A stretch of DNA of 34,622 nt from Opitutus sp. GAS368. GTDB taxonomy: Bacteria; Verrucomicrobiota; Verrucomicrobiia; Opitutales; Opitutaceae. Positions 5,262 through 34,622 of the stretch are shown one piece after another. The notes under the pieces are model-generated. The model ran no database searches and was not told the origin of the DNA. It was given only the letters and a program-made list of their open reading frames with translations. Position 1 is the stretch's first letter. Each line of letters starts with the position of its first letter. The translations under genes and the position numbers were made by a program. The stretch lies in assembly GCA_945861645.1 (NCBI GenBank), contig CAMAVZ010000021.1, forward strand, positions 1-34,622, in the 5' to 3' direction.

Positions 5262-5280
5262 CTGCCGCGCTCGGGCGGGA

Positions 5281-7303: not shown

Positions 7304-7332
7304 TTGCATCTTAAGTTTTTATGCTCTAGCCT
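7304..7332 (+). promoter_or_regulatory. Putative sigma70-like promoter, near-leaderless
   Basis: TTGCAT (7304-7309) - 17 nt - TAGCCT (7327-7332), 8 nt before ATG 7341. Confidence 0.55.
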
Positions 7333-7340
7333 CGGCGGAA

Positions 7341-10886: not shown

Positions 10887-10939
10887 GCGGGCAGTGTTGG
10901 TGGGTTGCCTCGCTCCCCGCAATCTGCATTCTGCAGTTT

Positions 10940-11140
10940 ATGAACGATGCTGAGCGATTGACCAAACTCGAGGAACGTTATGCCCATTTGCAGCGGCACA
11001 GCTTGGAACAAGACAAGGTCATGCTTGGGTTAAGCGAGGTGATGGCTAAATTGCAAAAAGACCTCACCGCGCTCCGCGGGCAACGCGGGAGTGGATCCGC
11101 GGGTGATGATTTACCCCCGGAGCGTCCGCCGCACTACTAA
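10940..11140 (+). CDS. slyX: SlyX family protein
   Basis: Short coiled coil (RLTKLEERYAH) ending in the diagnostic ERPPHY. Confidence 0.9.
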   Translation: MNDAERLTKLEERYAHLQRHSLEQDKVMLGLSEVMAKLQKDLTALRGQRGSGSAGDDLPPERPPHY

Positions 11141-12322
11141 TCAAAACAGCGCAGTGACCTCGACGTGCTTGCCGGGCTCCAAGGTAACTTCACCGGTGAG
11201 GGCCTCCGTCTCGTCGTTCTTATAGAGCTTGCACGTGATCGTCGCGGTCGCGTCGTTCGTCGACCAGCCCCACTTGCCAATAGAAACAAATTGCATCGGA
11301 GCGCCTTGGTCCCAGCTCAGGCCTGGACCTTCGCCGCGAATGAAAAGCTTGTTGCCGATGCCGATGTAGGCGGTGGCGAGCAAGCGAGTCGCGCCATCGG
11401 ACGAAGAGGCGGATTCGGCGGGCTCACGGTTCATCGTCTCAGTCGGGGCGGCTGATTCCTCACGGCCGAGCGATTCAGGGGAAATTTCGGTTCGCGATAA
11501 TTCCGATCCAGAATTTTCGCTGAGCTCAGCGATTGCTTCCGTCTTGGGTTTGCGCGGAGCGCGGGGCTTCTTGAGCTTAGGTTCGACGTCCTCCGGTGCC
11601 GCCAGCGGGGCACTGGCGTCCACCGGCGGCGTGACTAATTCGGTGGGGGCAGCGCTAATTGGCGCGGGACTCGGGGGGATGCTCTCGTGCGCCGACGCGC
11701 TGGGAGTTTCTGTTTTGCGGTGAGTAGCAGTACCTGCGGCGTGGAGGTGGGCTAGGGCGGCTTCGGCCGCGGCTAAATGTTTGCGACTGTTGGTTTCAAG
11801 CTTGGTCCAATCAGCGACCGCGAGATGAATTTTATCGGCGACGACTTTAAGTTGGGCGCTGTTGGCCGCGCGTAATTCCACCAACTCTTGCTCGAGGGCT
11901 TCGCGGTCATCATCTTCTTTACCGGCGAGGGCTTCGTTAAATTCCGCGAGCTTTTCTTGCATGCGGTACGGTAAGTTTTCCGCGGTGTGGGCGGCTTTGT
12001 GGACTGCCTCCTCGACGGCTTTGATTTGGGCCGCCGCGCGGGCGAGACTTTCGCCGGCAGCGTGTAAACGCTGGACTTGCTCGCTGACGCGTTCGCGTTC
12101 GGCTTGGACGTATTCGGCGGAGTCCGCCGAGAAATCGATGAGAAACGGAATGAGGCCTACGATGGCCGCCACGACCACACAGAGCACGGCGCTCACGAAG
12201 GGCAGTGGCGCGTAGGGATTCTTGGTATTAAAATAAACAATCAAAAAAGCCGTTAACAAAAGGACGGCATCAATGATCAGAAAGATCGATTTGGAGAGGC
12301 GCGGAGCAGGTTCGAGATTCAT
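11141..12322 (-). CDS. Hypothetical membrane-anchored protein: 2 TM, coiled coil, Pro/Ala/Lys-rich linker, small C-terminal beta domain
   Basis: 393-aa ORF with two hydrophobic N-terminal helices, a heptad-rich middle and C-terminal GIGNKLFIRGEGPGLSWDQG...GKW. Confidence 0.8.
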   Translation of the reverse strand: MNLEPAPRLSKSIFLIIDAVLLLTAFLIVYFNTKNPYAPLPFVSAVLCVVVAAIVGLIPFLIDFSADSAEYVQAERERVSEQVQRLHAAGESLARAAAQIKAVEEAVHKAAHTAENLPYRMQEKLAEFNEALAGKEDDDREALEQELVELRAANSAQLKVVADKIHLAVADWTKLETNSRKHLAAAEAALAHLHAAGTATHRKTETPSASAHESIPPSPAPISAAPTELVTPPVDASAPLAAPEDVEPKLKKPRAPRKPKTEAIAELSENSGSELSRTEISPESLGREESAAPTETMNREPAESASSSDGATRLLATAYIGIGNKLFIRGEGPGLSWDQGAPMQFVSIGKWGWSTNDATATITCKLYKNDETEALTGEVTLEPGKHVEVTALF

Positions 12323-12404
12323 GGGTGATTAGCTCGCTGGCTGTTTTCGCTCGGTAGGGGCGGTTTCTCAAGGCTAAACCAAGGCGGTCAAGGCGAGCGG
12401 AGTT

Positions 12405-12779
12405 TTAAATCATCAGCTGCCGCCACGCCATGCCGAGCAGGGAGAGAAGCATGCCAATCCGAATGGCGCCCTCGAAAGTCAGAATCACGAGAATCCACTT
12501 AAGCCCGCACGTACTACGTAAAGCGTAGCCGAGGCCGCTGACCAGCATTAGAATGATGCCCTGCGCTCGACCGACCGAGTGTAAAAGCAGCGTTGGCATC
12601 CAGAGAAAGTACCCAATTAGCCCGCTCGCCCACAGCGTCGCGGTCCAGTTGGCCATGGGCAATTCGCGCGGGTCGGCATTAACGCGGATCTGCTTAAGGC
12701 CCAAATAGCGTTCGCTCAGGAACAGTTGCCAGAGTTCAAGGCCCAAGAAAATTGGGGCGAGCAGAACGAGCGGATTCAT
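12405..12779 (-). CDS. Hypothetical small integral membrane protein (about 4 TM)
   Basis: 124-aa hydrophobic ORF starting 19 nt after the AKR stop on the same strand. Confidence 0.75.
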   Translation of the reverse strand: MNPLVLLAPIFLGLELWQLFLSERYLGLKQIRVNADPRELPMANWTATLWASGLIGYFLWMPTLLLHSVGRAQGIILMLVSGLGYALRSTCGLKWILVILTFEGAIRIGMLLSLLGMAWRQLMI

Positions 12780-12798
12780 GGGCCGCAGTACGGATCAA

Positions 12799-13788
12799 TT
12801 ATTTGCCGCCGTACCAGACGCCCCGGCGCCAGTTGTGGCGGTGTAATTGCTGGAGCAGGGCGGGCGGCATGGCCGGCAGATCGCTGACGCCGCAGTTGGC
12901 GTCAGCTTGCGCAACCGTGCGAATGCCGGGAATGACGGTCGAGACCGCCGGATGAGCCAGCACAAATTTTAAAGCTGCCTGCGGCAGCGAGTAGCCGCTG
13001 TCCGCGAGCTCTAATTTAATCGCCTCGGTGTGGGCGACGGCTCGCTCCATCCGATCGCCGGCAAAATAATGGGTGCGAAAATCGTCCGCGGCGAACTTAG
13101 TTTCCGCGGTGAACTTCCCGGTGAGCACGCCCTCATCGAAAGCCACGCGTACGATAATGCCGACGCCGTATTCTTGGGCGACGTTCAGCAATTCCGCGGC
13201 GGGCTCCTGATCAAAGATATTATAAATTACTTGTACGCTATCGACCCAGCCCCCGCGCATGAGATCGATCACGCTATTTTGATCAAATTCCGGCGTGGAA
13301 ACACCGACGAGGCCGATCAGGCCTTCGTGTTGTAGTTGGCGAAGAATTTTGAAAGGGGTGGGATGGCGATTCCAAGCGCGAGTCCAGGTGTGCAGCTGGA
13401 GCAAATCGAGGCGATCTGCGCCGAGCGTGGCGAGGCGGGTGGCGATATTCTCGCGGAGATAGTCCTCCGCGTAACGCACTTCCGCGCGACAGTAAGGGGA
13501 GGGCGGCCAGATGCCGGGCGCGGGCGGGGTCTTGGTGGCGACGAACACATTTTCTTTTTTTCCCGCGGCCGCCCGCTCGCGTAGTACTTGGCCAATTAAG
13601 CGTTCGCTGCGGCCGTTGCCGTACCCGGCGGCGGTATCAATAAAATTAACCCCCAGATCGAGCGCGCGGTGTAGGGCGGCGAGTGAGTCGCTGTCCGCTT
13701 GGGCGCCCCACGCGCCCCCGATGGCCCACGCGCCGAAGCCAATTTCTGAACAGCGGAAGTTTTGTTTACCGAAGGGACGATATTGCAT
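12799..13788 (-). CDS. Aldo/keto reductase
   Basis: IGFGAWAIGG, FIDTAAGYG (catalytic Asp/Tyr), VATK, DLLQLH, QVIYNIF, STVIPG. Start at ATG 13788 (MQYRPFG). Confidence 0.93.
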   Translation of the reverse strand: MQYRPFGKQNFRCSEIGFGAWAIGGAWGAQADSDSLAALHRALDLGVNFIDTAAGYGNGRSERLIGQVLRERAAAGKKENVFVATKTPPAPGIWPPSPYCRAEVRYAEDYLRENIATRLATLGADRLDLLQLHTWTRAWNRHPTPFKILRQLQHEGLIGLVGVSTPEFDQNSVIDLMRGGWVDSVQVIYNIFDQEPAAELLNVAQEYGVGIIVRVAFDEGVLTGKFTAETKFAADDFRTHYFAGDRMERAVAHTEAIKLELADSGYSLPQAALKFVLAHPAVSTVIPGIRTVAQADANCGVSDLPAMPPALLQQLHRHNWRRGVWYGGK

Positions 13789-13801: not shown

Positions 13802-15568
13802 TCAGTAGCCGATCGCCTTGCTGTCCGCTTTGCGGGGATCGGCCGCACCGTATCTTAAGCCAGTTTTAGGATCTATCGCGATACTCTCACCATCGCCTTG
13901 ATAGCCGCCTTCATAAGAGGCGCGCTCTTTGATGGTTTGGCCTTTCGCTTTGAGCGCCACCGCAGTGTCAGCGCTGAGGCCCTGATGTTCGAATGAGATG
14001 AAGTCAGGCATCCATTGTTGGTGGATGCGGGGAGCTTCGACTGCTTGCGCGACCGCCATGTTAAAATCGATGACGTTGGTGATGATTTGGAAGACGGTAT
14101 TAATAATGGCGGGACCACCGGGGCTGCCGGTGACGAGCACGAGGGCGCCATTTTTGAAAACGAAGGTTGGCGTCATGGAAGAGAGGGGACGCTTGCCGGG
14201 GACGATCGCGTTAGCTTCACCTTGAATGAGCCCGAACATATTAGCCGTGCCGACCTGAGCGGTGAAATCATCCATCTCGTTGTTCATTAAAATGCCCGTG
14301 CCTGGAATAGTGACGCCCGAGCCATAGGCGCCATTCAAAGTGTAGGTATTGCTGACGGCATTGCCGGCCGCATCGACGATGGAGAAATGGGTGGTCTCGG
14401 TAGATTCTGCTATTGGGCGGACCATGAATTTACCAAGCCCCGGCTGGATGGCGGTGGCTGGGGTCGCCCGATTGGGGGAGAAGTCTGTCATGCGGCCTTT
14501 GATATAAGCCGGATCGAGGAGTTGGCTGACAGGAATTTGGACGAAGGCCGGATCGCCTAAATATTCCGCGCGGTCGCGGAAAGCGCGTTTCATTACTTCC
14601 GCAAAAAGGTGATATTTAGCGGCAGAGTTTGAGCCCATCGCGGCAACGTCAAACGGCTCGATCATCCCCAGCATTTGCAGGATGGCGATACTGCCTGAGC
14701 TGGGTGGCGGCATGAGCACAATCTCGTAGCCGCGATATTTTCCGCGCAGGGGGGTGCGTTCTACGGCTTGATAGTTTTTCAGATCAGCGAGGGTGATATT
14801 CCCACCGTGGGCGGACATTGCGGCGGCAATTTTTTGGGCAGTCTCACCCTCATAAAATTCGCGTGGGCCATTTTTTTGCAGGCGAGCCATGGTAGCACCG
14901 AGATCGGCTTGCACCCAGTGTTCGCCGGCTTTCCAGAAGGCACCTTGCTTCAGGTAAATTTTTTGCGAGTCAGCAAACGGGGCGAGCAACTTAGCAAAAG
15001 TACGGAAGGAGGCGGCGTTCGCTTGCGACACGATGTGACCTTCGGCGGCCAGTCGGCGAGCGGGTTCGACTACCTGGGCCCAAGTGACTTTGCCGGAGCC
15101 GTATTTCTGCATTGCCAAAGCGAAGCCAGCGACGGAGCCGGGCACGCCGCTCGCTTGCCAACCCACGGTGGATGAACCCGCGCCTTGGCGTAACTTACCA
15201 TCTTGACCGACATACATGTCGCGAGTGGCGCTCGCTGGTGCGGTCTCGCGATAATCAATCGCGATATCGCGGCCCGTTTCTGGGGTAGCGCCCGCTAAAT
15301 GAATCATCATGAAGCCACCGCCGCCAATGTTGCCGGCAAAAGGATAGACCACCGTCAGCGCGAGGCCGGTGGCGACGGCTGCATCGACCGCATTGCCCCC
15401 TTGCTGTAAAATTTCTACGCCCGCCTGCGAAGCGAGTTCGTGCACGGAAACTACCATGCCGTGTTCAGCTTCAATGGCGGCTCGTTGGGCCGCTAGCGGT
15501 AGAGGCGTGGTCAGTAATGCTAACGCGGCCATTAACGGCGCAGTAATTAAACGGTGGGTAGTGAGCAT
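13802..15568 (-). CDS. ggt: Gamma-glutamyltranspeptidase with Sec signal peptide
   Basis: GGNAVDAAVA, GNIGGGGF, DYRETAP, autocleavage site E|TTHFSIVD, NNEMDDF, PLSSM, GSPGG, AADPR. Signal-like MLTTHRLITAPLMAALALL. Confidence 0.95.
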   Translation of the reverse strand: MLTTHRLITAPLMAALALLTTPLPLAAQRAAIEAEHGMVVSVHELASQAGVEILQQGGNAVDAAVATGLALTVVYPFAGNIGGGGFMMIHLAGATPETGRDIAIDYRETAPASATRDMYVGQDGKLRQGAGSSTVGWQASGVPGSVAGFALAMQKYGSGKVTWAQVVEPARRLAAEGHIVSQANAASFRTFAKLLAPFADSQKIYLKQGAFWKAGEHWVQADLGATMARLQKNGPREFYEGETAQKIAAAMSAHGGNITLADLKNYQAVERTPLRGKYRGYEIVLMPPPSSGSIAILQMLGMIEPFDVAAMGSNSAAKYHLFAEVMKRAFRDRAEYLGDPAFVQIPVSQLLDPAYIKGRMTDFSPNRATPATAIQPGLGKFMVRPIAESTETTHFSIVDAAGNAVSNTYTLNGAYGSGVTIPGTGILMNNEMDDFTAQVGTANMFGLIQGEANAIVPGKRPLSSMTPTFVFKNGALVLVTGSPGGPAIINTVFQIITNVIDFNMAVAQAVEAPRIHQQWMPDFISFEHQGLSADTAVALKAKGQTIKERASYEGGYQGDGESIAIDPKTGLRYGAADPRKADSKAIGY

Positions 15569-15947
15569 GGGAAAGGCTTTCTCTGATGTCGCAGTGCCTC
15601 GAGACGTCAATCCTTGGGTGAGCTCTGCCGCGTCTCCGGCCGTTTTTGTTGATGCCAGCCGTCAGGTCTTAGGAAATACTCTTATTTTATGCCCAAGCAG
15701 TTTTTTTAGATTATCTCATTCAAAAAGCTTGCCTCCGGCGGGAAAGGATAAAGTTTTTATCTTGTTTTCTTTACTATATTACTAATGTATATCTAAGCTT
15801 TAACTCATCCAGGCTATTTTTTATAAAAAACTTCCGCAGTCTCGCCGGCTTTATAACGGGGGAATCAGCAGTTGTGATTGGCGCAATGATCAATACATTT
15901 AGTTCAGGTTTGAGTATTAAAAACTCAAAATAATCTAACACACACCT

Positions 15948-18629
15948 ATGAATAATCAGAACCAAGTATCATCGATCTCGTATGCTACGGGATCCCGGCG
16001 AATCGGCTCAGTCGCTCTTTTCGCCTTTTTAATGTTAGCGGTTAATTCACCTGTCTTCGGGCAAACCGTCGCCCCGGAAGCAGCGAAGAAGAATGATACC
16101 ATTCAGTTGGAAAAATTCGTCACGACCGGGTCACGTTTCAATGACCGTTCGGTGACGCAATCCCCGGTCCCGATCGACGTCATCAGTGGCACCGAGCTCA
16201 AGCAGGGCGGCTACAATGAAACGAGCCAAATGCTGCAAGCGAACATTCCTTCGTTCAACTTCCCGCGTCCATCGTTGACGGATGGTACCGACCATATTCG
16301 CCCTGCCACGCTACGTGGATTGGCGCCGGACCAGACCCTCGTGCTCATCAATGGCAAACGCCGCCACACCAGTGCGCTCGTCAACCTCAACGGTTCAATT
16401 GGGCGCGGTTCAGTCTCGACCGACTTTAACGCTATTCCGGCGGCGATGATCGAGCGCATCGAAGTGTTGCGTGATGGGGCCTCGGCTCAATACGGCTCCG
16501 ACGCTATTGCTGGCGTGATCAATGTTATCTTGCGCAAGGATGCTGGTTGGGGCATGACCCTTGGTTACGGCGTTACGGGCGCTGGTGATGGCGAGGACTA
16601 CAAACTTGACGCCTTTACCGGGGTAGCCTTGGGCGACAAGGGTTCGCTCTTCGTGGATATTTATCTGCGCGATCACGCGCCGACCAATCGGAGCTTGGCC
16701 GATACGCGCCAGCAATATTTTGGCACCAGTACCACCACTGGCTTGCCGGTTGCGATGTCCGGTAATTATGGCTCGGGCACGGGTCTCAGCCCAGCGAACG
16801 GCACGCTCGATCCGCGTGAGGCGACGGTTAATCGCATCAACCACCGTTTTGGTGACCCGATGACGAAGGACCAAGGCCTTTGGCTCAATGGTGATTATCC
16901 GCTAGCGGAAAATCTTGATCTTTATTTCAACGGTGGCACTAGCACTCGTCACGCGAATGGCGCGGGCTTTGCGCGTCGCGCCGGCGACGATCGCACGGTT
17001 CGGAGCATTTGGCCTAATGGTTTTCTGCCGTACATCGATAGCGTCGTAAAAGATTTCTCTTTTAGCACTGGCGTTAAAGGCAAGGCGTCCAATTGGAATT
17101 ACGACCTGAGCACCATCGCCGGGACCAATACGCTTGATTATCGCACCTCTAACTCCGCCAACGTCACGTTGGGCGGCGCGAGCGGTACCGCCTTCTACGA
17201 TGGCCAGCTGAAATTTGCCCAAATGGGAGCCAACCTAGATCTCACGACTTCATTTAATACGGGTTTTGCCACGCCGCTTAAATTCGCGGTCGGCGCGGAA
17301 GTTCGCGCGGAAAGATACACCATCAAAGCTGGTGAAGCTGATTCCTACCGCAATGGTGGCGTCACTATTATTGGTGGGCCCAGCAACGGTGGCCTCGCCG
17401 CGGTCGGGGCCCAGGTGTTCCCGGGCTTCAAGCCTTCAGATGCCGGCTCCCACAACCGCCGCGCTAAGTCGGTCTATCTCGACCTCGAGCAAAATCTGAC
17501 GGATCGCTGGTTGGTTTCCCTCGCGGCTCGCTTCGAGGACTATACGGACTTCGGCAATAACAGCACGGTCAAGCTCGCCTCCCGCGTAGAGCTGACCAAT
17601 GAATTCGCACTGCGCGGCTCGGTCAGCACGGGCTTCCGCGCGCCGCACTTAGCGCAACAATGGTTCAGCGCCACGTCCACTAATTTTATCGGTGGCATCC
17701 CTTACGATATTCTCACCTTCCCCGTCAGTAATGCGGCGGCCAAAGCTTTAGGCGCCTCCAGCTTGAAGCCCGAGGAATCGACCAATATCAGCGGCGGGAT
17801 CACCTGGAATTCAAAGAAATCCGGTTTCTCTGCCTCCGTGGATATCTACAATATCGAGATCAAGGATCGCATCGTGCTATCCTCTAACTTCACCGGCGCT
17901 CCGATCATCGCGTTGCTCGCAACGCAGGGCATCACGGGCGTGGGCGGCGGTCGCTACTTCACCAACGCAATTGATACTACCACCAAGGGGGTTGATGTGA
18001 GTGGTCGTTACGTCCTGACCACCAGCACATCGGGTAAATTCACCTTCACCGGTGGCTTTAATCACAACACGACGAAGGCCAACCGGATCAAGCAGGCTCC
18101 GGCTAATCTCGCCGCGATCACCACCACGCCGCTTTTTGATCTCACCGAAACCATCCGCCTCGAAAAGGGTCAACCGCGCGATAATATTAATCTCTCGGCC
18201 GGCTGGGAATACGGTAAATTCTCTTTCTTGGCCCGCCAAGTGCGCTACGGCGAAGTTTCAGCGGTCACTTTTACCAGCGCCACTCAAGCCAATATCGATG
18301 TGCTGACTCCCGGTTATAATGTCGAGTTCGCCGCCGCTGTCCCTGGTTCCGTGGGTGGCACGACCACTAATAAACAAGTCATCCAAACTTGGGGCGCTAA
18401 GTGGCTCACTGACCTTGATGTGACTTATCATTACACAAAGAACATCATGATCTCCGTTGGCGCGAATAACCTCCTCGACGTCTATCCTGACGAGAATATC
18501 CGTTCGAAGGTTTTCAATGGCGCGGCCTATGGCGGCACGGACAACGCGGGTATCTTCCCTTATAACAGTATTTCACCGTTCGGCTTTAACGGCGTGTTTT
18601 ATTACACCAAGCTGAGCCTGAAGTTCTAA
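15948..18629 (+). CDS. TonB-dependent outer-membrane receptor (TBDR1)
   Basis: Signal peptide, TonB-box-like IQLEKFVTTGSR, plug motifs LRGLAPDQTLVLINGKR and IERIEVLRDGASAQYGSDAIAGVINVIL, C-terminal aromatic residue (KLSLKF). Confidence 0.95.
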   Translation: MNNQNQVSSISYATGSRRIGSVALFAFLMLAVNSPVFGQTVAPEAAKKNDTIQLEKFVTTGSRFNDRSVTQSPVPIDVISGTELKQGGYNETSQMLQANIPSFNFPRPSLTDGTDHIRPATLRGLAPDQTLVLINGKRRHTSALVNLNGSIGRGSVSTDFNAIPAAMIERIEVLRDGASAQYGSDAIAGVINVILRKDAGWGMTLGYGVTGAGDGEDYKLDAFTGVALGDKGSLFVDIYLRDHAPTNRSLADTRQQYFGTSTTTGLPVAMSGNYGSGTGLSPANGTLDPREATVNRINHRFGDPMTKDQGLWLNGDYPLAENLDLYFNGGTSTRHANGAGFARRAGDDRTVRSIWPNGFLPYIDSVVKDFSFSTGVKGKASNWNYDLSTIAGTNTLDYRTSNSANVTLGGASGTAFYDGQLKFAQMGANLDLTTSFNTGFATPLKFAVGAEVRAERYTIKAGEADSYRNGGVTIIGGPSNGGLAAVGAQVFPGFKPSDAGSHNRRAKSVYLDLEQNLTDRWLVSLAARFEDYTDFGNNSTVKLASRVELTNEFALRGSVSTGFRAPHLAQQWFSATSTNFIGGIPYDILTFPVSNAAAKALGASSLKPEESTNISGGITWNSKKSGFSASVDIYNIEIKDRIVLSSNFTGAPIIALLATQGITGVGGGRYFTNAIDTTTKGVDVSGRYVLTTSTSGKFTFTGGFNHNTTKANRIKQAPANLAAITTTPLFDLTETIRLEKGQPRDNINLSAGWEYGKFSFLARQVRYGEVSAVTFTSATQANIDVLTPGYNVEFAAAVPGSVGGTTTNKQVIQTWGAKWLTDLDVTYHYTKNIMISVGANNLLDVYPDENIRSKVFNGAAYGGTDNAGIFPYNSISPFGFNGVFYYTKLSLKF

Positions 18630-26898: not shown

Positions 26899-27396
26899 AT
26901 GAAGTGTTCTCGGCGTCTCCTCAGTTTATGGTTGAGCCTCTGCGTGATCGGTTTGCCCATCGTTGGCGCGGCCGCGGTCGAATATGAGTTGGTTGGTTTC
27001 GATCGTTTGGCCTCTTTCACGTTCACCGCGCCAGAATTCAATAATGCGGATCCCAAGGCGCTACCACCATCGGGCGCTGATCAAATTCCGGCTAAGATCA
27101 AGGCGCTCGATCAGCAGAAAGTGGCGGTGACGGGTTATATGTTGCCGGTTCGGATGGAGGCCGGGTTGGTTAAGGAACTGCTTTTAGTTAAAGACCCCAT
27201 GATGTGTTGCTATGGCGTCATGCCGAAAATCAACGAGTGGGTGGTGGTCAAAATGATCGGCGCTGGCGTGAAGCCGCTGATGGACGTGCCGATTACTTTT
27301 GAAGGTAAACTTCGCGTGGGCGAGATGTACGAGAACGGTTATCTGACCGGCGTCTATTTGCTCGAGGGCGAAAAGCTGGTGGGCGTAAAAGGCTAA
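26899..27396 (+). CDS. DUF3299-like exported OB-fold protein (ZrgD-like)
   Basis: Signal peptide, KALDQQKVAVTGYMLP, CCYGVMPKINEWVVV, PITFEGKL; follows the matching ABC pair. Confidence 0.75.
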   Translation: MKCSRRLLSLWLSLCVIGLPIVGAAAVEYELVGFDRLASFTFTAPEFNNADPKALPPSGADQIPAKIKALDQQKVAVTGYMLPVRMEAGLVKELLLVKDPMMCCYGVMPKINEWVVVKMIGAGVKPLMDVPITFEGKLRVGEMYENGYLTGVYLLEGEKLVGVKG

Positions 27397-27445: not shown

Positions 27446-27901
27446 TCAGCGCGAAATATCCCGCTGAGTCAGCACCTTGTAGCCGCGCGTATTGAGCGCA
27501 CTCGCCGCGAGATCATTATCTTCCACACTGAGTGCGAGAGCCGATTTTCCCTCGGGCCGCATAAAAAAAGAATAGAGATAATGAATGTTAATTTCCACCG
27601 TGAGCAGCGCCTTCAGCACGCCTTGCAGTTGCGATTCATCGGAAATCTCTACGGCCAGAACTTCGCATTCGGTGTAAGCAAAATTAGTGGCCGCCATCAA
27701 TTCGCGGGCGCGGTCAGGGTCATCCACGATTAATCGATCAATCGCGCAATCCGTCGTGTCGAGAGTGGTCATCGCCATCACGTGCACGTTATGCTTCGCG
27801 AGTAAGGCCGTCAGATCATAAAGTTGGCCGACGCGATTCGGTAAAAAAACCGAGAATTGTTTTACCGGATCAGTGGCGAGCGGGGTGGCGGTGTCAGACA
27901 T
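27446..27901 (-). CDS. Tandem ACT-domain (amino-acid-binding) protein
   Basis: KQFSVFLPNRVGQL...IDRLIVDDPDRA...INIHYLYSF; two-ACT architecture; start at ATG 27901. Confidence 0.88.
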   Translation of the reverse strand: MSDTATPLATDPVKQFSVFLPNRVGQLYDLTALLAKHNVHVMAMTTLDTTDCAIDRLIVDDPDRARELMAATNFAYTECEVLAVEISDESQLQGVLKALLTVEINIHYLYSFFMRPEGKSALALSVEDNDLAASALNTRGYKVLTQRDISR

Positions 27902-28038
27902 AAACGGCGACTGCTGTATGTCGTGGTGGCGGGTGGCGGTCAATGCCGACGTGCGTAGCCGATAGGAGGCTTGAGTGTCGTGCGGGGAGCACCCAACGTG
28001 CGGCATGGTTTTTTATCAGCAGATTTCCGCGCTCTAGG

Positions 28039-28953
28039 ATGAAGCCGTCCGATGTGCATCAAGCGGTCGCACAGCGCGCAAATAACAGTGCGCGCTTGGT
28101 GCTGCGGGGCATTGGGCTAAACGCCGTGCTGGCGGTGGTGAAATTAGCGGGGGGCATATTCGGCCACACCTATGCGCTGATTGCGGATGCAGCGGAGTCC
28201 ATGCTCGATATCTTATCTTCGACACTGGTGTGGGCGGGTTTTCGGGTGGCGGCGCGTCCGCCGGACGCGAATCATCCTTACGGGCACGGCAAAGCGGAGC
28301 CGCTCGTTGGGTTGGTGGTCGCCTTATTTATTTTTGTGATGGCCGGTTGGGTCGCCTCGCATGCCATCCATGAAATTCGGACGCCCCATCAAGGTCCGGC
28401 CTGGTGGACGTTATTAGTGTTAGCGGGCGTGATCGTTGCAAAAACATGGTTCTCGCGGCGCATGGGGATGGCGGGCGAAGAGGTGGGCAGCACCGCCCTG
28501 GGCCTTGAGGCCATGCATCATTGGTCTGATGCCATCACTTCGGGCGCCGCCTTTGTGGGTATTAGTATCGCGCTATGGGGCGGCGCTGGTTGGGAAACCG
28601 CCGATGACTGGGCCGCTTTATTTGGCTGTGTGATTATCGCCTTCAATGGTTTTAGTATGTTTATGCAGGCCCTGGGCGATGTGATGGACACGGCCGCGCC
28701 GCAGAATTTCGAAAATGAGGTGCGGGCGCTCGCCCTCGCGGTGTCCGGCGTGCACGCGCTCGATAAAGTGCGGATGCGCAAAAGCGGGCTCAGTCACCTG
28801 GTGGATATTCAGGTGCGGGTGGATGGTGATTTAACGGTGCGCGAAGGCCACGGCATCGCGCACGCTGTCAAGGATGCGCTCATTGCTTCGGCGAGTCATC
28901 GTATCAGTGATGTGACGGTGCATATCGAGCCCGCCGCTGGCCCCGGCCTGTGA
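28039..28953 (+). CDS. Cation diffusion facilitator (FieF-like) metal transporter
   Basis: ALIADAAESMLD, PPDANHPYGHGKAE, HHWSD, EGHGIAH, VTVHIEP. Confidence 0.93.
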   Translation: MKPSDVHQAVAQRANNSARLVLRGIGLNAVLAVVKLAGGIFGHTYALIADAAESMLDILSSTLVWAGFRVAARPPDANHPYGHGKAEPLVGLVVALFIFVMAGWVASHAIHEIRTPHQGPAWWTLLVLAGVIVAKTWFSRRMGMAGEEVGSTALGLEAMHHWSDAITSGAAFVGISIALWGGAGWETADDWAALFGCVIIAFNGFSMFMQALGDVMDTAAPQNFENEVRALALAVSGVHALDKVRMRKSGLSHLVDIQVRVDGDLTVREGHGIAHAVKDALIASASHRISDVTVHIEPAAGPGL

Positions 28954-29177
28954 CTGGCGGCTGCGGTCTTAACGCTAGGGCGCCTCGGCCTTAGTAGCTA
29001 AGGAGTTAGCTCGGCGGGAGCCTTACCTATAACTACGCCATCTCAGCAGGGGAGTTTAGCTAGACAATAATAGAACGAGTGGTTCATTCAGGATCTTTGT
29101 ACATTATCTTGTGGGTCTAACGCGGCTGATCGCAGGCCCCATCAATCCATCTTCCTTCCTATCATCACCCTTAACGC

Positions 29178-30050
29178 ATGCGTTGCTTTTGGCTCCTTTT
29201 CCTTGCCCTCGGTTTAGTCGGCTTGAGCCTGACAACGCGGGGGTCTGGGCCGGCTACGCGGGGGAGTTTCCTCTTTACGAGCGGCGGTCATAAATTGACG
29301 GTGTGGCATTATCGTCCGGCTGGGACAGCTGCGGACGCGCCGGTGCTGTTTGTGATCCATGGGGTGGGGCGCAATGCGGAGGAATATTTAAACGATTGGG
29401 TGGAACTGGCTGAGCAGAAAAAAGTACTACTGATAGTGCCAGAGTTCTCTAAAACTGAATTTCCCGGTGAAGAGGCTTTTAATTCTGGCAATTTATTTGA
29501 TGCCAGCGGCCAGCCGGTGCCGCGGGCCCAATGGTCCTATAGCATGATCGAGCCGATCTTCGACGCCGTTCGGGAGCGCTCGGGCAGTCAGCGCAACGAT
29601 TACATGATCTATGGCCATTCGGCGGGGGCGCAATTCGTCCAGCGATTTTTGTATTTTATACCAGAGGCGCGGGTGACTCGTCTCATCGCGGCCAATGCGG
29701 GTTGGTATATGCTGCCCGAATGGACCACTGCTTTTCCCTACGGACTTAAAGGGACTGTTTTAAACGAGGCGGCGCTCCGGACCGCATTTGCGCGCCCACT
29801 GGTGGTGCTGTTGGGCGAGGCCGATATTGATTCACAGCACAAAAGCCTTCGCCATACCCCGGAAGCTGATGCGCAAGGACTCTATCGCTTTGCGCGCGGG
29901 CACTATTTCTTTGCGCACGCTAAGGCAGCGGCCGCTGCGCTGAACACGCCTTTTAATTGGACGTTAGCTACCGTGCCTAATGTTGAGCACTCGAACCAGG
30001 GAATGGCCCCATCGGCGCTGCAACACCTCTTGCCACTTTCCCGTCTTTAA
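29178..30050 (+). CDS. pahZ1: Secreted alpha/beta serine hydrolase, poly(aspartic acid) hydrolase-1 (PahZ1)-like
   Basis: Signal peptide followed by GSFLFT, LFVIHGVGRNA, IEPIFD, YGHSAG (Ser at 29619-29621), AANAGWY, PYGLK, LLGEADID, TPEAxxQG, HSNQGM. These match, in order, motifs I recall from Sphingomonas sp. KT-1 PahZ1; no alignment was run. Confidence 0.75.
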   Translation: MRCFWLLFLALGLVGLSLTTRGSGPATRGSFLFTSGGHKLTVWHYRPAGTAADAPVLFVIHGVGRNAEEYLNDWVELAEQKKVLLIVPEFSKTEFPGEEAFNSGNLFDASGQPVPRAQWSYSMIEPIFDAVRERSGSQRNDYMIYGHSAGAQFVQRFLYFIPEARVTRLIAANAGWYMLPEWTTAFPYGLKGTVLNEAALRTAFARPLVVLLGEADIDSQHKSLRHTPEADAQGLYRFARGHYFFAHAKAAAAALNTPFNWTLATVPNVEHSNQGMAPSALQHLLPLSRL

Positions 30051-30070
30051 CTTAATTAACCCTAACACCT

Positions 30071-33000
30071 ATGAACCTAACACCCTATACACTTCGTCGC
30101 GCGAGCAATCTCGCCCTGCTGGCTTTTGCCGCCAGCCTTTCTTTAGCCCAAGCTCAATTGAGCCCGACCGCGCCGGCGGCCCAGAGCTCCAAAGAAGAGA
30201 CGGTGGTGCTCCAGACTTTCACCGTCACGGGTTCTAATATTAAGCGCCTCGACGCGGAAAAGAGCCTCCCGGTCACAGTCATCGATCAAGAGGCCATGGA
30301 AGTTCGCGACGCTGCGCAAGCGGCGGATCTGCTTACTTCGCTCCCGCAAGTCACCGGTTTGCCTGGCAACGAAACCGCCACGCTGGGCGCCACCGCGCGC
30401 GGTGACAACGCCACGGTTTCATTGCGCGGCATCCCTTCCAGCAACACGCTCGTCTTGTTGAATGGTCGCCGGCTCGCCCCGCACCCGATCAGTCAATCGG
30501 AGGCTGGGGTCCCCACGCTCTCAACCAATGTGAACCAACTGCCGAATCGCGGCCTCGATCATATCGACGTGTTGCGCGATGGCGCTTCCTCGATTTACGG
30601 CACCGACGCGGTGGCGGGGGTTATTAACTATATTACGCGCCGTAACTATAACGGCACCGAGCTGCAATTACGTTACGGGGAGACTAATTATCGCGACGGG
30701 GCGGAATTTCGCTCCACCCTCACGCATGGCTTCGATTTTTCTAATGGGAAGGGTCGCGGCATGATCGTGGCTGATTACTATACGCGCCAAGCGATGTTTG
30801 CGCGGGATCGGGAGTTTTCAGCTGAGGCCGACAACACCTACCGCGCCCCGGCGCCGTGGAATGTCGCCACGAACACCACGTTCAATCTGCGCTCCGCCAC
30901 CAGCGAATATGGTAATTATCTGCTCGGCACGATCACGGCGACCAACGCCTATGGGGCGGTCACCGGCTTCACCGGGGCGCGGCCAACGGGCGTGCCGACG
31001 ACCCTCGCTTCCGCGACGGGCGTATTTTATCTCGCCCCCAATGGCAATGGGCTAGGCGGCGCGCAATTTCTAACCGCGGTGCCCTCCCGGGCTGGGATTA
31101 CGCATGACTATTACTGGAATAATAACGCCTACCGCGTGATCCAGCCTCAGTCGAAGCGCTATAATATTTTCGCCAGCGGCGAGTACGATCTGAATAGCCG
31201 CATTACTTTATTCACTGATCTGAGTTTCTATCGCGCTGATTCGCTGACCTATCGTGAGCCGGACGGGATCACGCAGAGCACCGATGGCTTCATTATCGTG
31301 CCTGCCACCAATCCGTGGAATCCCTTTGGCACGCGCTTCTGGTCCACCACTGGCGCCGCTAACACCGACGGCACCGCCCGCCTGACGGGGACGCCTTCAG
31401 CTGTCTCCATTACCAATAAACGCCTGACTGATTTGATGGATCGCACGGCCACGGTGACCAATATCATTTATCGCGGGGTCGCCGGGCTGCGCGGCAAGCT
31501 TTTCAACAACTGGACCTGGGAGAGCGCGGTACTCTATTCGCAAGCTCACGTCACCGATGAAGAGGCAGGCCCGAGCCGGAAGAGCCTGCTCATCGCCGCC
31601 ATTAACCAGACCGATCCTTTGAAGGCTTTTAATCCTTTCACCCGGACCTTTGCCGTGCAGAACGGCGCCCTCGTGGTGACGGGTCCGTACGTTAATTCTT
31701 CGATGGTGCAGTCGGGCTTCCGCTCAAAATTTATTCGTGAGGGCATCACAAAATTGGCGAGCGGCGACGTCCGCGCGGCCGGCGATGTGCTGTCGATCTG
31801 GGGCGGCAACGCGATCGGCGCGGCAGTCGGGGGCGAATGGCGCTACGAAGGCTATGACGATATGCGTCCAGCCTACGCCGGCTTAAATCCGGCTGGCTCC
31901 GGTTTAGACGGATCCACTAACGATTTCCTCGGGTTCTCCCCCAACCCGGACACCCACGGTACGCGTCACGTGGAGGCGGCTTACGTGGAGACCAACCTAC
32001 CGCTGGTGGGTAATAAATTCCGCCTGCCGCTGGTGCGCTCCCTTGAGTTGTCGGCCTCGGCGCGCTTCGAGAGTTACTCTGACTTTGGTGATACCACCAA
32101 ACCCAAGCTCGGGGTTAACTGGCGGCCTTTTTCTTGGGCGATGGTGCGCAGTTCCTACAACGAGGGGTTTCATGCGCCTAACTTAGCGCAACTTTTCACC
32201 GGTACCTTGATTCGCACCGTGACGGGCAGCACGGATACTTATCGCAGCGGCGTTACCGGTCTGACGACCGACGGCCCCTCGAATCGCCGGAGCGTGGCCG
32301 CGGGTAATCCCAATCTTCAACCGGAAGAATCCAAGGGTAAGTCGGCGGGAATCGTGATCGAGGTGCCGCTGGTTAAAGGCCTATCCTTCGGAGTTGATTA
32401 CTGGGAGATTGCGCAAACCAATGTCATCGCTTCTGCGGGCTCGATTACCGATGACAACTTAGCGCTGAACGTAGCCACGCAGGCCGCGCTCGCGTCCGGT
32501 CAGGCGATTGGCTCGATCGATTTAGGCTCCGGCACCGCAAATTATAAGGGGGATGGCGCCGTCGTGCGCTTGGCGGTCACGCAGGCCGATCGTGATTCCT
32601 TCACGCTCTACAATTCCACCCGGACCGCCGGTAATCAAAAGGCAGTGGTCGGCGCGATCGATATCCTGCGCACGACTTATTTCAATAAAGCATCGGAATT
32701 TGTGAACGGCTTTGATTTCGATTTGAACTACCGTTTCCCCGTCACCGCCATCGGCAATTTCACGTTTAACACGACGTGGACTAAGCTCATCGACTTCTAC
32801 GCTTATAACGCCGCTGGGGCCTCGCGCACTAATCTGCTCTGGACCAATTCTTCTACAGTCGGCGGCGCTACTCCGGTCTGGCGCGGTAGCGCTTCGCTCG
32901 GTTGGCGGCGCAATGCTTGGAGCGCCGGCCTCTCGGCTTATTATATCGGCGACTATAGCGATAGCGGGGCCACGACAACCCAAGCGATCTATGATTCGCT

Positions 33001-33274
33001 TGGTGCGCCGAACTACATCGTGCCCGTGGTCACGAATAGCACCACCGTCTATCGGTACCGCGTCAGTGATTCGATTACCTACAACGCGAATATCTCCTAT
33101 CGTTTGCGCACAAAAAATAAGTGGACCAATGATACCACGATTCGCCTCGGGGTTATTAATCTGCGCAACACCAAGCCACCGCTCTCCAGTGATTCACGCG
33201 GCTATGATCCTGCGATCTATAATTTGATGGCCCGCGGTCAGTCCTGGTCGCTCCAACTGACCAAGAAGATCTAA
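30071..33274 (+). CDS. Large TonB-dependent receptor (TBDR2, 1067 aa)
   Basis: Signal peptide, VVLQTFTVTGSNIKR, LRGIPSSNTLVLLNGRR, IDVLRDGASSIYGTDAVAGVINYI, ARFESYSDFGDTTKPK, GNPNLQPEES. Confidence 0.95.
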   Translation: MNLTPYTLRRASNLALLAFAASLSLAQAQLSPTAPAAQSSKEETVVLQTFTVTGSNIKRLDAEKSLPVTVIDQEAMEVRDAAQAADLLTSLPQVTGLPGNETATLGATARGDNATVSLRGIPSSNTLVLLNGRRLAPHPISQSEAGVPTLSTNVNQLPNRGLDHIDVLRDGASSIYGTDAVAGVINYITRRNYNGTELQLRYGETNYRDGAEFRSTLTHGFDFSNGKGRGMIVADYYTRQAMFARDREFSAEADNTYRAPAPWNVATNTTFNLRSATSEYGNYLLGTITATNAYGAVTGFTGARPTGVPTTLASATGVFYLAPNGNGLGGAQFLTAVPSRAGITHDYYWNNNAYRVIQPQSKRYNIFASGEYDLNSRITLFTDLSFYRADSLTYREPDGITQSTDGFIIVPATNPWNPFGTRFWSTTGAANTDGTARLTGTPSAVSITNKRLTDLMDRTATVTNIIYRGVAGLRGKLFNNWTWESAVLYSQAHVTDEEAGPSRKSLLIAAINQTDPLKAFNPFTRTFAVQNGALVVTGPYVNSSMVQSGFRSKFIREGITKLASGDVRAAGDVLSIWGGNAIGAAVGGEWRYEGYDDMRPAYAGLNPAGSGLDGSTNDFLGFSPNPDTHGTRHVEAAYVETNLPLVGNKFRLPLVRSLELSASARFESYSDFGDTTKPKLGVNWRPFSWAMVRSSYNEGFHAPNLAQLFTGTLIRTVTGSTDTYRSGVTGLTTDGPSNRRSVAAGNPNLQPEESKGKSAGIVIEVPLVKGLSFGVDYWEIAQTNVIASAGSITDDNLALNVATQAALASGQAIGSIDLGSGTANYKGDGAVVRLAVTQADRDSFTLYNSTRTAGNQKAVVGAIDILRTTYFNKASEFVNGFDFDLNYRFPVTAIGNFTFNTTWTKLIDFYAYNAAGASRTNLLWTNSSTVGGATPVWRGSASLGWRRNAWSAGLSAYYIGDYSDSGATTTQAIYDSLGAPNYIVPVVTNSTTVYRYRVSDSITYNANISYRLRTKNKWTNDTTIRLGVINLRNTKPPLSSDSRGYDPAIYNLMARGQSWSLQLTKKI

Positions 33275-33278
33275 TCCG

Positions 33279-33379
33279 GCAAATTTTGCGGGGCAGGGGG
33301 CGTGATTAAATCACGCGGCGGGGCGCTACGATTAAATGAGTAGCGACCCCTCTGACGGTGACCCTGCCCGCGTTTTTGC
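33279..33379 (+). other. Multi-branch structured intergenic element (RNA structure or REP composite)
   Basis: Outer stem 33288-33298/33362-33371 encloses two inverted repeats, each centred on GATTAAAT, and is followed by GTTTTTG. Confidence 0.6.
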
Positions 33380-33417
33380 TGAACGTAGCTCAATGGTGTT
33401 AAATTTAGTTCGTCTTT

Positions 33418-34622
33418 ATGATGTCTGACGCTGCGCCGCTTCGCGTGCCTATCCCGAGTGGAACCAGCAGCAGCCAAAAGCAGTTGCTGGCCTGTACCCT
33501 CGTGGTGGTGGTGGCCAGTTTGCTGGCTTCACTCATTCAGAATTCTGGTGGGCGGGTGCAGGTCATGGATCTCAAGATCCCCACCCAGAATGGGCAGTGG
33601 TTGGTCGCCGATCTTTTCCGGCCCCGCTCTGCTACGAGTGAGCAACCGGCTCCGCTGGTTATTGTCGTACCCGGGTTTCAGCGCTCCAAAGAATCGCTGG
33701 CTAATATTTCCCTCGAACTGGCGCGGCGGGGCCTAGTCGTCATCGCGCTCGATCCGTACGCTCAGGGCGGATCAAGTTCCTCGGCGACCGCCCAGTCCGC
33801 CACCACCGAAGGTTATGGGTTATTCGCGGTGGTGAACTACGCCGCCAACACGAATAATCTTAACTATATTGACCAAGCGAAAATCGGCGCGACTGGTCAT
33901 TCGGCGGGGGGCAACGCGGTGCTGCAAGGCGCTAGTTATTTTGGCCAAGAGGCTTTGCGCTTAGGTCGCCCGAGTAAATTGCATGCCGTGTACATCTCGG
34001 GTTACGCGCTTTCGCTCACGGCGAAAATTCTCAAGAATGTCCGGTCCCACGTCGGTTTTAGTTACGCTTTTTTTGATGAAGGCGCCTACCGCAATGAATT
34101 ACAAAATGGCGATATGCGTCACGCTCCAGAGGCGCTGCGCTTAATTAATTCAGCGCTTGATCCGGCGGAAGACGCGCCCACTGAGGTCGCGCTGAATCAT
34201 TACTACGGGACGGCCGCAGCGCGCAATTTACGCGTGGTACATAATGAGCGGACGCTGCATCCCTTCCAGCCGTACAGTCGCGAAGCCACGGCGCACCAGC
34301 TCGATTATTTTACCCAGGTCTTTGGTCTCACCGGCGATCTCGCTAGCGATGATCAAGTGTGGCTGTGGAAAGAATTACTGACCCTGGTGTCGCTCGTGGC
34401 TGCGTTTCTCGGCTTGGTCCCCCTGGCGCATTTACTGCTCACTCATCTGCCATATTTTCAACAAGTCGTCCGACCACTGCCAGTGGCCCCGCCTGCCCCG
34501 TCGGGCGCGGGGCGCTATTTATTTTGGGGTCTGCTCATCTTGGGGGCTTTGGTGGCGTGTTTCTCTTATATTCCCCTGACCGAGTTAGCCCAAAAAATAT
34601 TTGTGGCCGCCGCCGGTCGCGC
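33418..34622 (+). CDS. Membrane-anchored alpha/beta hydrolase, 3'-truncated by window end (absent from ORF track)
   Basis: Read manually from ATG 33418 with no stop to the window end: N-terminal hydrophobic anchor, PAPLVIVVPGFQRSKE, ELARRGLVVIALDPY, ATGHSAGG (Ser at 33901-33903), FFDEG, TLHPFQPY, then TM helices from WLWKELLTL. Confidence 0.9.
   Translation, partial: MMSDAAPLRVPIPSGTSSSQKQLLACTLVVVVASLLASLIQNSGGRVQVMDLKIPTQNGQWLVADLFRPRSATSEQPAPLVIVVPGFQRSKESLANISLELARRGLVVIALDPYAQGGSSSSATAQSATTEGYGLFAVVNYAANTNNLNYIDQAKIGATGHSAGGNAVLQGASYFGQEALRLGRPSKLHAVYISGYALSLTAKILKNVRSHVGFSYAFFDEGAYRNELQNGDMRHAPEALRLINSALDPAEDAPTEVALNHYYGTAAARNLRVVHNERTLHPFQPYSREATAHQLDYFTQVFGLTGDLASDDQVWLWKELLTLVSLVAAFLGLVPLAHLLLTHLPYFQQVVRPLPVAPPAPSGAGRYLFWGLLILGALVACFSYIPLTELAQKIFVAAAGR

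Follow-up and report, generated by a model that had tools for sequence, protein, structure and literature searches.

A predicted PahZ1-family hydrolase gene and its conserved TonB-dependent receptor neighbor in Opitutaceae

Polyaspartate is marketed as a biodegradable substitute for polyacrylate, and to our knowledge the natural substrate of the PahZ1 enzymes that have been characterized on it is not known. We analyzed a PahZ1-like gene in 34,622 nucleotides of DNA from Opitutus sp. GAS368 (NCBI GenBank assembly GCA_945861645.1, contig CAMAVZ010000021.1), the whole of which is called the window here, and compared the gene and its surroundings with the closest described systems. Six PahZ1 enzymes have so far been shown to degrade polyaspartate (PMC13017698, 2026). 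The PahZ1 of Pedobacter sp. KP-2, which was known to be active earlier and is 39% identical to that of Sphingomonas sp. KT-1 (PMC13017698), cuts beta-Asp amide bonds, and a shared ancestry with poly(3-hydroxybutyrate) (PHB) depolymerases has been argued (PMC4456602). The most recent study added the KP-2 structure and four new homologs, which were selected from BLAST matches with over about 40% identity to KT-1; all four hydrolyze thermal polyaspartate (tPAA), and their TM-align identities to KT-1 are 45–93% (PMC13017698). Hydrolysis of tPAA is treated there as a required characteristic of PahZ1, and the enzymes are placed in the periplasm (PMC13017698, citing Hiraishi and Maeda 2011). The main text of that paper makes no mention of an operon, genomic context, TonB, a natural or native substrate, or cyanophycin. 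The initial annotation of the window gene, which was made from the sequence, knew of no characterized example in the lineage; this is not so at the level of the phylum, where an enzyme of the verrucomicrobium Brevifollis gellanilyticus (PahZ1Bfg) degrades tPAA (PMC13017698), but it holds at the levels of class and family.

From its sequence, its predicted structure, and its gene neighborhood, we consider it likely that the window gene encodes an exported PahZ1-family hydrolase that would cleave beta-aspartyl bonds internally, and that it belongs to a probable operon in which this cleavage would be coupled to import by a TonB-dependent receptor (TBDR). When the 290-aa protein was compared by phmmer with 177,635 PDB sequences, the best match was PahZ1 of KT-1 (6ve6, E 7.5e-74), in which query residues 28–280 aligned with chain residues 36–289 with one single-residue gap, followed by PahZ1 of KP-2 (9o7u, E 5.3e-60, query residues 40–278) and LpqC, a “putative PHB depolymerase” (3d0k, E 6.3e-49, query residues 40–277); the fourth match was an unrelated hydrolase (E 0.13). 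Identity to KT-1 was 45% (114 of 254 columns, counted by hand on the phmmer alignment) or 43% by Foldseek, and this range of 43–45% falls inside that of the tested enzymes, 39–93%. An AlphaFold2 (AF2) model built on a 72-sequence alignment had a mean pLDDT of 94.0 and a pTM of 0.90. In Foldseek comparisons, the target-normalized TM was 0.93–0.94 against 6ve6, 0.92 against 9o7u (40% identity), and 0.83–0.85 against 3d0k (33% identity); when normalized to the 290-aa query including the signal peptide, it was 0.86 for 6ve6 and 0.85 for 9o7u. Beyond the PahZ1 and LpqC structures, the PDB fold matches fell to generic esterases, with a TM of about 0.6 and ≤18% identity. The initial annotation had looked for full-length similarity to the KT-1 and KP-2 enzymes, which is what was obtained, and the steep fall in TM past the PahZ1/LpqC structures distinguishes this similarity from that expected of any alpha/beta-hydrolase. 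A TM above 0.90 to 6VE6 has been reported for all PahZ1 members (PMC13017698). Judged from sequence and model, the protein belongs to a distinct PahZ1/LpqC sub-fold, in which it lies nearest the two proven polyaspartate hydrolases, and its membership in the PahZ1 family is, on homology, fold, and residues, about as secure as sequence allows. LpqC of Bordetella parapertussis shares the sub-fold yet is more distant than either PahZ1, and its name is itself a prediction, so it provides no functional guidance.

Conservation of the residues aligned with those of KT-1 (Table 1) was scored in 72 aligned homologs that are 37–92% identical to the window protein. Ser148, Asp216, and His271 of the catalytic triad, together with Arg237, Arg65, Arg156, and Arg240, were invariant in all 72, as were Gly146, His147, Ser148, and Gly150 of the nucleophile elbow, and position 221 was His in 43 of the 72. 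In the KT-1 enzyme, the substitutions S157A, D225A, and H280A established PahZ1 as a serine hydrolase, and S157A abolished its activity; R246A, R246E, and R246K each abolish activity as well, and the role of the H230/H231 pair derives from molecular dynamics simulations (PMC13017698). The motifs that the initial annotation had read as the triad are all present in the translation (GHSAG at residues 146–150, LLGEADID at 211–218, and HSNQGM at 271–276), and their Ser, Asp, and His align with the KT-1 triad. It had further expected conserved basic residues in the substrate trench, in agreement with the invariance of Arg237; His221 and Lys222 take the positions of the KT-1 pair.

The window protein shares with KT-1 PahZ1 the GHSAG elbow, the triad, the R246-equivalent arginine, and the first His of the basic pair, whereas it differs in the second basic residue, which is His in KT-1 and Lys here, in its pI (about 6.6–7.3 for the mature protein, against 8.02 reported for KT-1; PMC13017698), and in its host, a member of Verrucomicrobiota rather than Alphaproteobacteria. 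The triad and the arginine are also as in KP-2 PahZ1. However, in KP-2 the elbow carries F at the His position and there is no His pair (PMC13017698), whereas the window protein retains His147 and His221, and by these residues it resembles the KT-1 type over the KP-2 type. PahZ1Bfg comes from the same phylum as the window protein, has a pI of 6.75, and is 48.8% identical to KT-1, but it is a fusion of about 70 kDa with a CapA-like domain (PMC13017698), whereas the window protein has a single domain and its gene is paired with a TBDR gene. Proteins of the Bfg type, with a PahZ1-like and a PGA_cap domain (P0126, P0130, P0139, and P0168), were 45–51% identical to the window protein. Two proteins, from Sphingopyxis (L066) and Sphingomonadaceae (L080), were considered as close orthologs of KT-1 and rejected, in that they scored 224 and 237 bits against 6ve6, below the 251 bits of the window protein. 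All six assayed enzymes hydrolyze polyaspartate and bracket the identity of the window protein to KT-1, and on this basis we expect with good confidence that the window protein would hydrolyze polyaspartate in vitro.

The ATG of the gene is the first start codon past the upstream stop. The protein starts with M-R, followed by a 16-residue hydrophobic run from C3 to L18 (Kyte–Doolittle 11-residue means of 1.7–2.8); in the AF2 model residues 4–20 are helical, with a pLDDT of 66–70 in the first two ten-residue blocks, and homologs align only from about residue 25–30 on. The hydrophobic stretch and the low pLDDT fit the signal peptide proposed in the initial annotation, and the N-terminus is probably a Sec signal peptide. 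No lipobox cysteine was found after the hydrophobic core of the N-terminus, so the signal would not be of the lipoprotein type.

The names given to close relatives raise the alternative that the protein is a polyester hydrolase, either a PHB depolymerase or oligomer esterase, or an enzyme acting on an anionic beta-polyester such as poly(beta-L-malate). A word-indexed search gave 1998 matches among 8000 scored candidates, and the best 120 of these, at 55–99% identity, were named “alpha/beta hydrolase,” “hypothetical protein,” or, in many JGI entries, “poly(3-hydroxybutyrate) depolymerase.” A common ancestry of PahZ1 and PHB depolymerases has also been proposed (PMC4456602), and there is weak similarity to the NCBIfam models NF050058 (extracellular short-chain-length PHA depolymerase) and TIGR01840. 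Both matches, however, were under their cutoffs, at 47.9 bits against 150 for NF050058, over residues 33–163 only, and 21.9 bits against 107.85 for TIGR01840. Extracellular PHB depolymerases carry a linker and a polymer-binding domain. The window protein is one compact 290-aa domain, in which Pfam shows no extra domain, and identification as a PHB depolymerase was rejected on the low scores and the absence of a polymer-binding domain. As for poly(beta-L-malate), the SDF symporters that are encoded beside relatives (described below) would, from general knowledge of DctA-type carriers, carry malate too; but the recurrent partners of the family are amide hydrolases (PahZ2-like M20/M28 proteins, isoaspartyl peptidase, and GGT) and not enzymes of an ester pathway, and the arginine required for polyaspartate hydrolysis is invariant. 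We regard a polyester substrate as very unlikely.

In TonB-dependent polymer utilization loci, such as those of the SusC type, an outer-membrane importer is encoded beside exported hydrolases. The window locus is similar in placing an importer gene beside that of a predicted exported hydrolase, and its relatives add an inner-membrane carrier and regulators (ECF sigma/FecR or a TPR histidine kinase). In contrast to SusC-type loci, no SusD-like partner was seen, the SusC signature reached only 19.1 bits against a cutoff of 46.2, and the enzymes of the PahZ1 loci are amidases and peptidases instead of glycoside hydrolases. The TBDR gene of the window, for which no specific NCBIfam subfamily reached its cutoff, starts 20 nt past the stop codon of the PahZ1-like gene on the same strand, and 143 nt separate it from a downstream alpha/beta-hydrolase gene. 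From this spacing and the shared strand, the PahZ1-like and TBDR genes are probably co-transcribed. A sigma-70-type scan found no promoter-like site on the + strand of the spacer in front of the PahZ1-like gene, and a promoter is presumed there from the gap alone.

To place this arrangement among related loci, species-representative genomes were scanned; of the 599 matching stretches, 548 code for a relative, and the 80 best of these were used as loci. In a quick tree with SH-aLRT support only, from which L007 was left out for a stop codon in its matched stretch, the window formed a clade with L001–L006, L009, and L010; L018, which is proteobacterial and lacks all of the partner genes, fell in this group of the tree as well. 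A TBDR ortholog of about 1065 aa lies directly 3′ of the PahZ1-like gene on the same strand in every one of the 8 orthologous Opitutaceae loci, and the window has the same order, with identities to the window of 62–94% for the TBDR and 53–90% for the PahZ1-like protein. The other genes vary. An NhaC-family carrier gene and an Asparaginase_2 (isoaspartyl-peptidase) gene lie directly upstream in L004, L006, and L009, and in the first two of these they occupy the interval between the cation-efflux (CDF) gene and the PahZ1-like gene, from which they are absent in the window. A TPR histidine kinase gene lies upstream in L002, L003, L005, and L010, an SDF-family symporter gene follows the TBDR in L003 and L005, and a GGT-like gene is found downstream in L001, L003, L004, L005, and L010. 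On the upstream side, L004 and L006 share the flank of the window (a hypothetical gene of the 165-aa type, the ACT gene, and the CDF gene), and the cassette ends with a GTP-type phosphoenolpyruvate carboxykinase (PEPCK) gene in L001 (9943–11232) and L004 (16576–18465), with a phosphate-selective-porin-like gene in the cassette end of L001 (8594–9508). By analogy with L001, whose PahZ1-like protein is 90% identical, a GGT-like gene probably lies just past the window end, and the porin-like and PEPCK genes probably lie beyond it too. The variation of partner genes between conserved flanks indicates that the PahZ1-like–TBDR pair is the constant core of the cassette, and the constancy of this pair in Opitutaceae suggests that an oligomer or polymer is imported by the receptor and cleaved in the periplasm.

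The same gene order could also have been inherited as mere synteny, with the protein acting as a general periplasmic esterase or peptidase that is functionally unlinked to the TBDR. TBDR genes are frequent in these genomes, the window itself having a second one; operon signals were not detected in promoter and terminator scans; and the eight loci with the same order all come from one family-level clade, hence represent few independent events. However, the gap between the two genes is short and they share a strand, the cassette gains and loses genes between CDF upstream and PEPCK downstream while the PahZ1-like–TBDR adjacency is kept, and TBDRs of the class of about 1000–1180 aa are also encoded next to PahZ1-like genes in separate alpha- and gammaproteobacterial clades. 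We therefore regard an unlinked enzyme in inherited synteny as highly improbable.

We also counted partner genes within 6 kb of the PahZ1-like gene in the best 80 loci, by using profiles made from neighbor clusters against six-frame open reading frames (ORFs). A TBDR gene was found in 24 loci (plus the window), an SDF symporter gene (Na+:dicarboxylate; Asp/Glu/C4) in 11, an Asparaginase_2 gene of the isoaspartyl peptidase type in 8, immediately next to the PahZ1-like gene every time, an M20/M28 peptidase gene in 8, a GGT-like gene in 6, an NhaC-family gene in 6, and ECF sigma and FecR genes in 5 each. One or more of seven partner families (TBDR, SDF, Asparaginase_2, M20/M28, GGT-like, NhaC, and DLH-type hydrolase) occurred in 36 of the 80 loci; among the 44 loci flanked by ≥5 kb on each side, the number was 24. 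Several clades of the quick tree contain such partners, and five phyla are represented (Verrucomicrobiota, Pseudomonadota, Acidobacteriota, Bacteroidota, and Planctomycetota). An acyl-CoA dehydrogenase gene also recurred (11 loci), mostly in one Erythrobacteraceae-type clade, and is attributed to lineage synteny. As a control, 95 flanks of at least 9.5 kb were divided by gene midpoint into a near (0–4.75 kb) and a far (4.75–9.5 kb) part, and the near and far counts were 5 vs. 0 for Asparaginase_2, 4 vs. 0 for NhaC, 6 vs. 1 for M20/M28, 5 vs. 1 for SDF, and 12 vs. 5 for TBDR.

The M20/M28 neighbor in L076 matches the PDB entry 7ljh, “Poly(Aspartic acid) hydrolase,” with E 1.5e-93, which we take to be PahZ2 of KT-1, and such PahZ2 homologs adjoin the PahZ1-like gene in the 8 loci with an M20/M28 gene. 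The Asparaginase_2 neighbor matches isoaspartyl-peptidase structures (2zak, E. coli-type, E 2.3e-64; 9hnc, “beta-aspartyl-peptidase,” E 6.4e-56). In L076, from a metagenome-assembled genome (MAG) of Emcibacter sp., ECF sigma, FecR, TBDR, PahZ1-like, isoaspartyl peptidase, and PahZ2-like genes stand in one row (about 4400–12825), which looks like a complete locus of the polyaspartate type. Isoaspartyl peptidases cut beta-aspartyl peptides and GGT-family enzymes cut gamma-glutamyl amides, PahZ2 completes the degradation of oligo(Asp), and SDF-family carriers import aspartate, glutamate, and C4-dicarboxylates. The neighbors thus suggest that the family serves in nature to degrade acidic polyamides whose residues are linked through side chains, for which beta-aspartyl-rich peptides, cyanophycin-derived material, and poly-gamma-glutamate may be the natural polymers. 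In two Opitutales MAGs (L062, 5244–12000, and L049), TBDR, NhaC, and isoaspartyl peptidase genes are followed by several consecutive PahZ1-like paralogs, and some of these ORFs encode 544–741 aa and are probably multidomain.

Domain fusions were surveyed with Pfam in 30 long homologs, 12 of which have a domain of peptidase or amidase type beside the PahZ1-like domain: PGA_cap in 4, Peptidase_M14/AstE_AspA in 3, M20/M28 in 2, and S51, which we take to be the cyanophycinase/aspartyl-dipeptidase family, GGT, and S9 in 1 each. Other fusions were with CBM96 (2, one with GH114), Ig domains (2), and, once each, Beta-lactamase, Exo_endo_phos, DUF1570, GDSL/DUF4886, TPR/PG_binding, CarboxypepD_reg, and Big_1, and 7 of the 30 had no extra Pfam domain. 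P0144 (717 aa) and P0150 (719 aa) combine a PahZ1-like and an M20/M28 domain in one polypeptide, and over 401 residues the C-terminal half of P0144 shares 50% identity with a PahZ2-like neighbor protein, which indicates that natural fusions of the PahZ1–PahZ2 type exist and join both enzymes of the KT-1 system.

The neighbors and fusions also bear on whether the physiological substrate might be poly-gamma-glutamate or gamma-glutamyl peptides, with polyaspartate hydrolysis as a side activity. The GGT-family amidase is the most regular extra partner in the window clade (the five loci listed above), and the GGT-like protein matches both gamma-glutamyltranspeptidase (4y23, E 1.2e-65) and CapD (3g9k, E 4.2e-29), a poly-gamma-glutamate-processing enzyme. 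Fusions with PGA_cap, M14 carboxypeptidase-like, and GGT domains (4, 3, and 1 of the 30) point in the same direction, and the tested Brevifollis enzyme is a CapA-like fusion (PMC13017698). However, all the tested family members cleave polyaspartate (PMC13017698), and elsewhere in the family isoaspartyl peptidase and PahZ2 homologs are the tightest neighbors, with gaps of ≤146 bp. The two readings are compatible with each other, as L004 carries an isoaspartyl peptidase gene as well as a GGT-like one. No report of PahZ1 tried on poly-gamma-glutamate was found in a search that excluded the early enzymology papers. Taken together, we consider a primarily gamma-glutamyl substrate to be rather unlikely.

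Returning to the exported beta-aspartyl hydrolase, we propose the following mechanism. The Ser148–His271–Asp216 triad on the GHSAG elbow would attack an amide bond in a polyanionic chain, while Arg237 and neighboring basic residues (Arg65, Arg156, Arg240, and His221/Lys222) would hold the chain, which would be expected to be cut internally at beta-linked aspartyl amides to give oligomers, as in KT-1 and KP-2 PahZ1. The PahZ1-like gene would be the first of a probable operon, followed by the gene of the 1067-aa TBDR, that of a membrane-bound second hydrolase, and, next in the closest relative, that of a GGT-like amidase. The TBDR would carry an acidic oligomer or polymer across the outer membrane, PahZ1 would cut it in the periplasm, and the downstream hydrolases would finish the products to free amino acids.

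Several observations weigh against this proposal. The main caution on the predicted polyaspartate hydrolysis is charge: the mature protein is near neutral and not strongly cationic, with a pI of 7.3 to 6.6 for a start at residue 21 to 29 and a net charge at pH 7.4 of −0.1 to −2.1, whereas the best tPAA degraders are cationic, the pI of the KT-1, KP-2, Spyx, and Spd enzymes being 8.0–9.7 (PMC13017698). In pI the window protein resembles PahZ1Bfg (pI 6.75) and PahZ1Ebac (6.26), which are active but reach only about 75–79% of KT-1 degradation at 24 h (PMC13017698). The counterpart of KT-1 H231 is Lys222 here, which still leaves a basic pair. Activity is so far a prediction for the window protein and every Opitutaceae ortholog alike. 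Pfam offers no family for the protein at E values up to 1, and automatic names call its relatives “poly(3-hydroxybutyrate) depolymerase.” Promoter and intrinsic-terminator scans of 28800–34622 performed no better than on shuffled sequence, and thus neither supported nor delimited an operon. The 34.6-kb window contains no PahZ2 homolog, M20/M28 gene, isoaspartyl peptidase gene, or SDF or NhaC transporter gene, so the strongest “aspartyl” partners are seen only in relatives. In the census, 44 of the 80 loci, many of them on short contigs, had none of the partner families. GGT genes gave near and far counts of 2 vs. 3, because they lie beyond the 3.2-kb TBDR gene, and TBDR genes are common in these phyla, with five in the far flanks, so that the family-wide link is weaker than the clade-specific one.

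The link of PahZ1 to the membrane-bound hydrolase downstream is also weak, since this gene follows the TBDR gene only in the window, L001, and L009. Its Pfam match (PETase/DLH/Abhydrolase_1) in the window covers residues 64–249 only. The full-length protein has 625 aa (L001, 4597–6474, 93% identical to the window; also P0271). An N-terminal membrane helix precedes the hydrolase domain with its GHSAGG motif, and 7–8 further membrane helices are predicted at about 315–617, as seen in P0271 and the AF2 model. The protein is unusually conserved. In an alignment of 35 sequences the mean column identity was 74%, and the proteins are 62–96% identical across several phyla, with sources in Verrucomicrobiota, Planctomycetota, Gammaproteobacteria, Gemmatimonadaceae, and others, where they are named only “dienelactone hydrolase family” or “alpha/beta hydrolase.” The C-terminal membrane part had no Pfam match, the PDB fold search recovered the hydrolase domain only (query-normalized TM ≤0.28) with no match for the membrane domain, and an Atlas search with the downstream hydrolase returned generic alpha/beta-hydrolase clusters only.

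The coordinates of the PahZ1-like gene, its key residues, and the other features of the window are summarized in Table 1. Upstream of the PahZ1-like gene lie an ABC/FtsX pair, a 165-aa protein, the ACT-domain gene, and the CDF gene. As listed, the CDF ORF overlaps at its start with 64 nt of the ACT gene on the opposite strand, and its Pfam match begins only at residue 55; the true start is probably an internal Met. Farther upstream, the window has a full gamma-glutamyltransferase gene, whose identity to the GGT-like genes in the PahZ1 loci is only about 30% and which is divergent from the second TBDR gene, and two zinc-type alcohol dehydrogenase genes and an aminotransferase gene come after this pair.

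Table 1. Coordinates of the PahZ1-like gene, its functional residues, and other features in the 34,622-nucleotide window.
Coordinates	Strand	Feature	Evidence
29178..30050	+	PahZ1-like serine alpha/beta-hydrolase gene, 290 aa, stop codon included	ORF, homology, model
29178..29240	+	Candidate Sec signal peptide, about residues 1–21	Hydrophobic run, low pLDDT, homolog alignment start
29613..29627	+	Nucleophile elbow GHSAG, residues 146–150; Ser148 = KT-1 S157	phmmer alignment
29823..29825	+	Asp216 codon, predicted catalytic acid = KT-1 D225	phmmer alignment, homolog conservation
29838..29843	+	His221-Lys222 = KT-1 basic pair H230/H231	phmmer alignment
29886..29888	+	Arg237 codon = KT-1 R246, predicted substrate-positioning arginine	phmmer alignment, homolog conservation
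29988..29990	+	His271 codon, predicted catalytic base = KT-1 H280	phmmer alignment, homolog conservation
28954..29177	.	Non-coding spacer, 224 bp, CDF gene to PahZ1-like gene, presumed promoter region	ORF ends
30071..33274	+	TonB-dependent receptor gene, 1067 aa	Pfam Plug + TonB_dep_Rec_b-barrel
33418..34620	+	Membrane-bound alpha/beta-hydrolase gene, first 401 of about 625 codons, exits window	Pfam PETase/DLH/Abhydrolase_1
27943–28953	+	Cation-efflux (CDF) gene	Pfam
27446–28006	-	ACT-domain gene	
26899–27396	+	ORF, 165 aa, kept beside ACT and CDF genes in L004 and L006	No Pfam/NCBIfam match
15948–18629	+	Second TonB-dependent receptor gene, 893 aa, divergent from gamma-glutamyltransferase gene	
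13802–15610	-	Gamma-glutamyltransferase gene	TIGR00066, 561 bits vs. cutoff 358
12405–12779	-	ORF, 124 aa	No Pfam/NCBIfam match
11141–12322	-	ORF, 393 aa	No Pfam/NCBIfam match

An exhaustive profile search returned 2912 clusters (50% identity) at E ≤0.001 and 706 at E ≤1e-30. The PahZ1-like family is thus very large, and the single gene in the window is an expected member, not a rarity in itself. The named sources among the best 120 matches were Opitutae, Opitutus, Lacunisphaera, Oleiharenicola, and “Verrucomicrobia,” with one exception, P0066, which is 71% identical to the window protein and is labeled Acidobacteriota; the names of relatives and the quick tree agree that the host is an Opitutaceae-type verrucomicrobium. 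While the gene adds to a known family, the conserved architecture of its locus may be new. We found no description of a TonB-dependent PahZ1 locus in the literature searched, which covered the main text of PMC13017698 but not the early PahZ1/PahZ2 papers.

Beyond the window, we tentatively raise the possibility, to which we give somewhat less than even weight, that PahZ1 is the endo-acting part of a widespread, undescribed, modular TonB-dependent locus for natural omega-linked acidic polyamides (beta-aspartyl and perhaps gamma-glutamyl) in at least five phyla, and that these enzymes are not accidental degraders of a synthetic polymer. Such a locus may be assembled from a receptor in the outer membrane, PahZ1, a carrier for Asp or dicarboxylates, and an exo-acting enzyme that completes the degradation (a PahZ2-type M20/M28 protein, an isoaspartyl peptidase, or a GGT-like amidase); in the Opitutaceae variant, the membrane-embedded second hydrolase and, in the closest relative, the GGT-like amidase may take the finishing role. 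The window gene adds an Opitutaceae candidate polyaspartate hydrolase with a near-neutral pI, and the pairing with a TBDR, together with the pairings with PahZ2, isoaspartyl peptidase, GGT-like, and aspartate-type carrier genes, makes the question of the natural substrate experimentally addressable. Orthologous loci are present in cultured Oleiharenicola strains (Oleiharenicola lentus, L005; Oleiharenicola sp. Vm1, L003). If this possibility is true, the PahZ1 locus would point to an unrecognized natural pool of beta-aspartyl-rich polymers or peptides in freshwater and soil organic matter.

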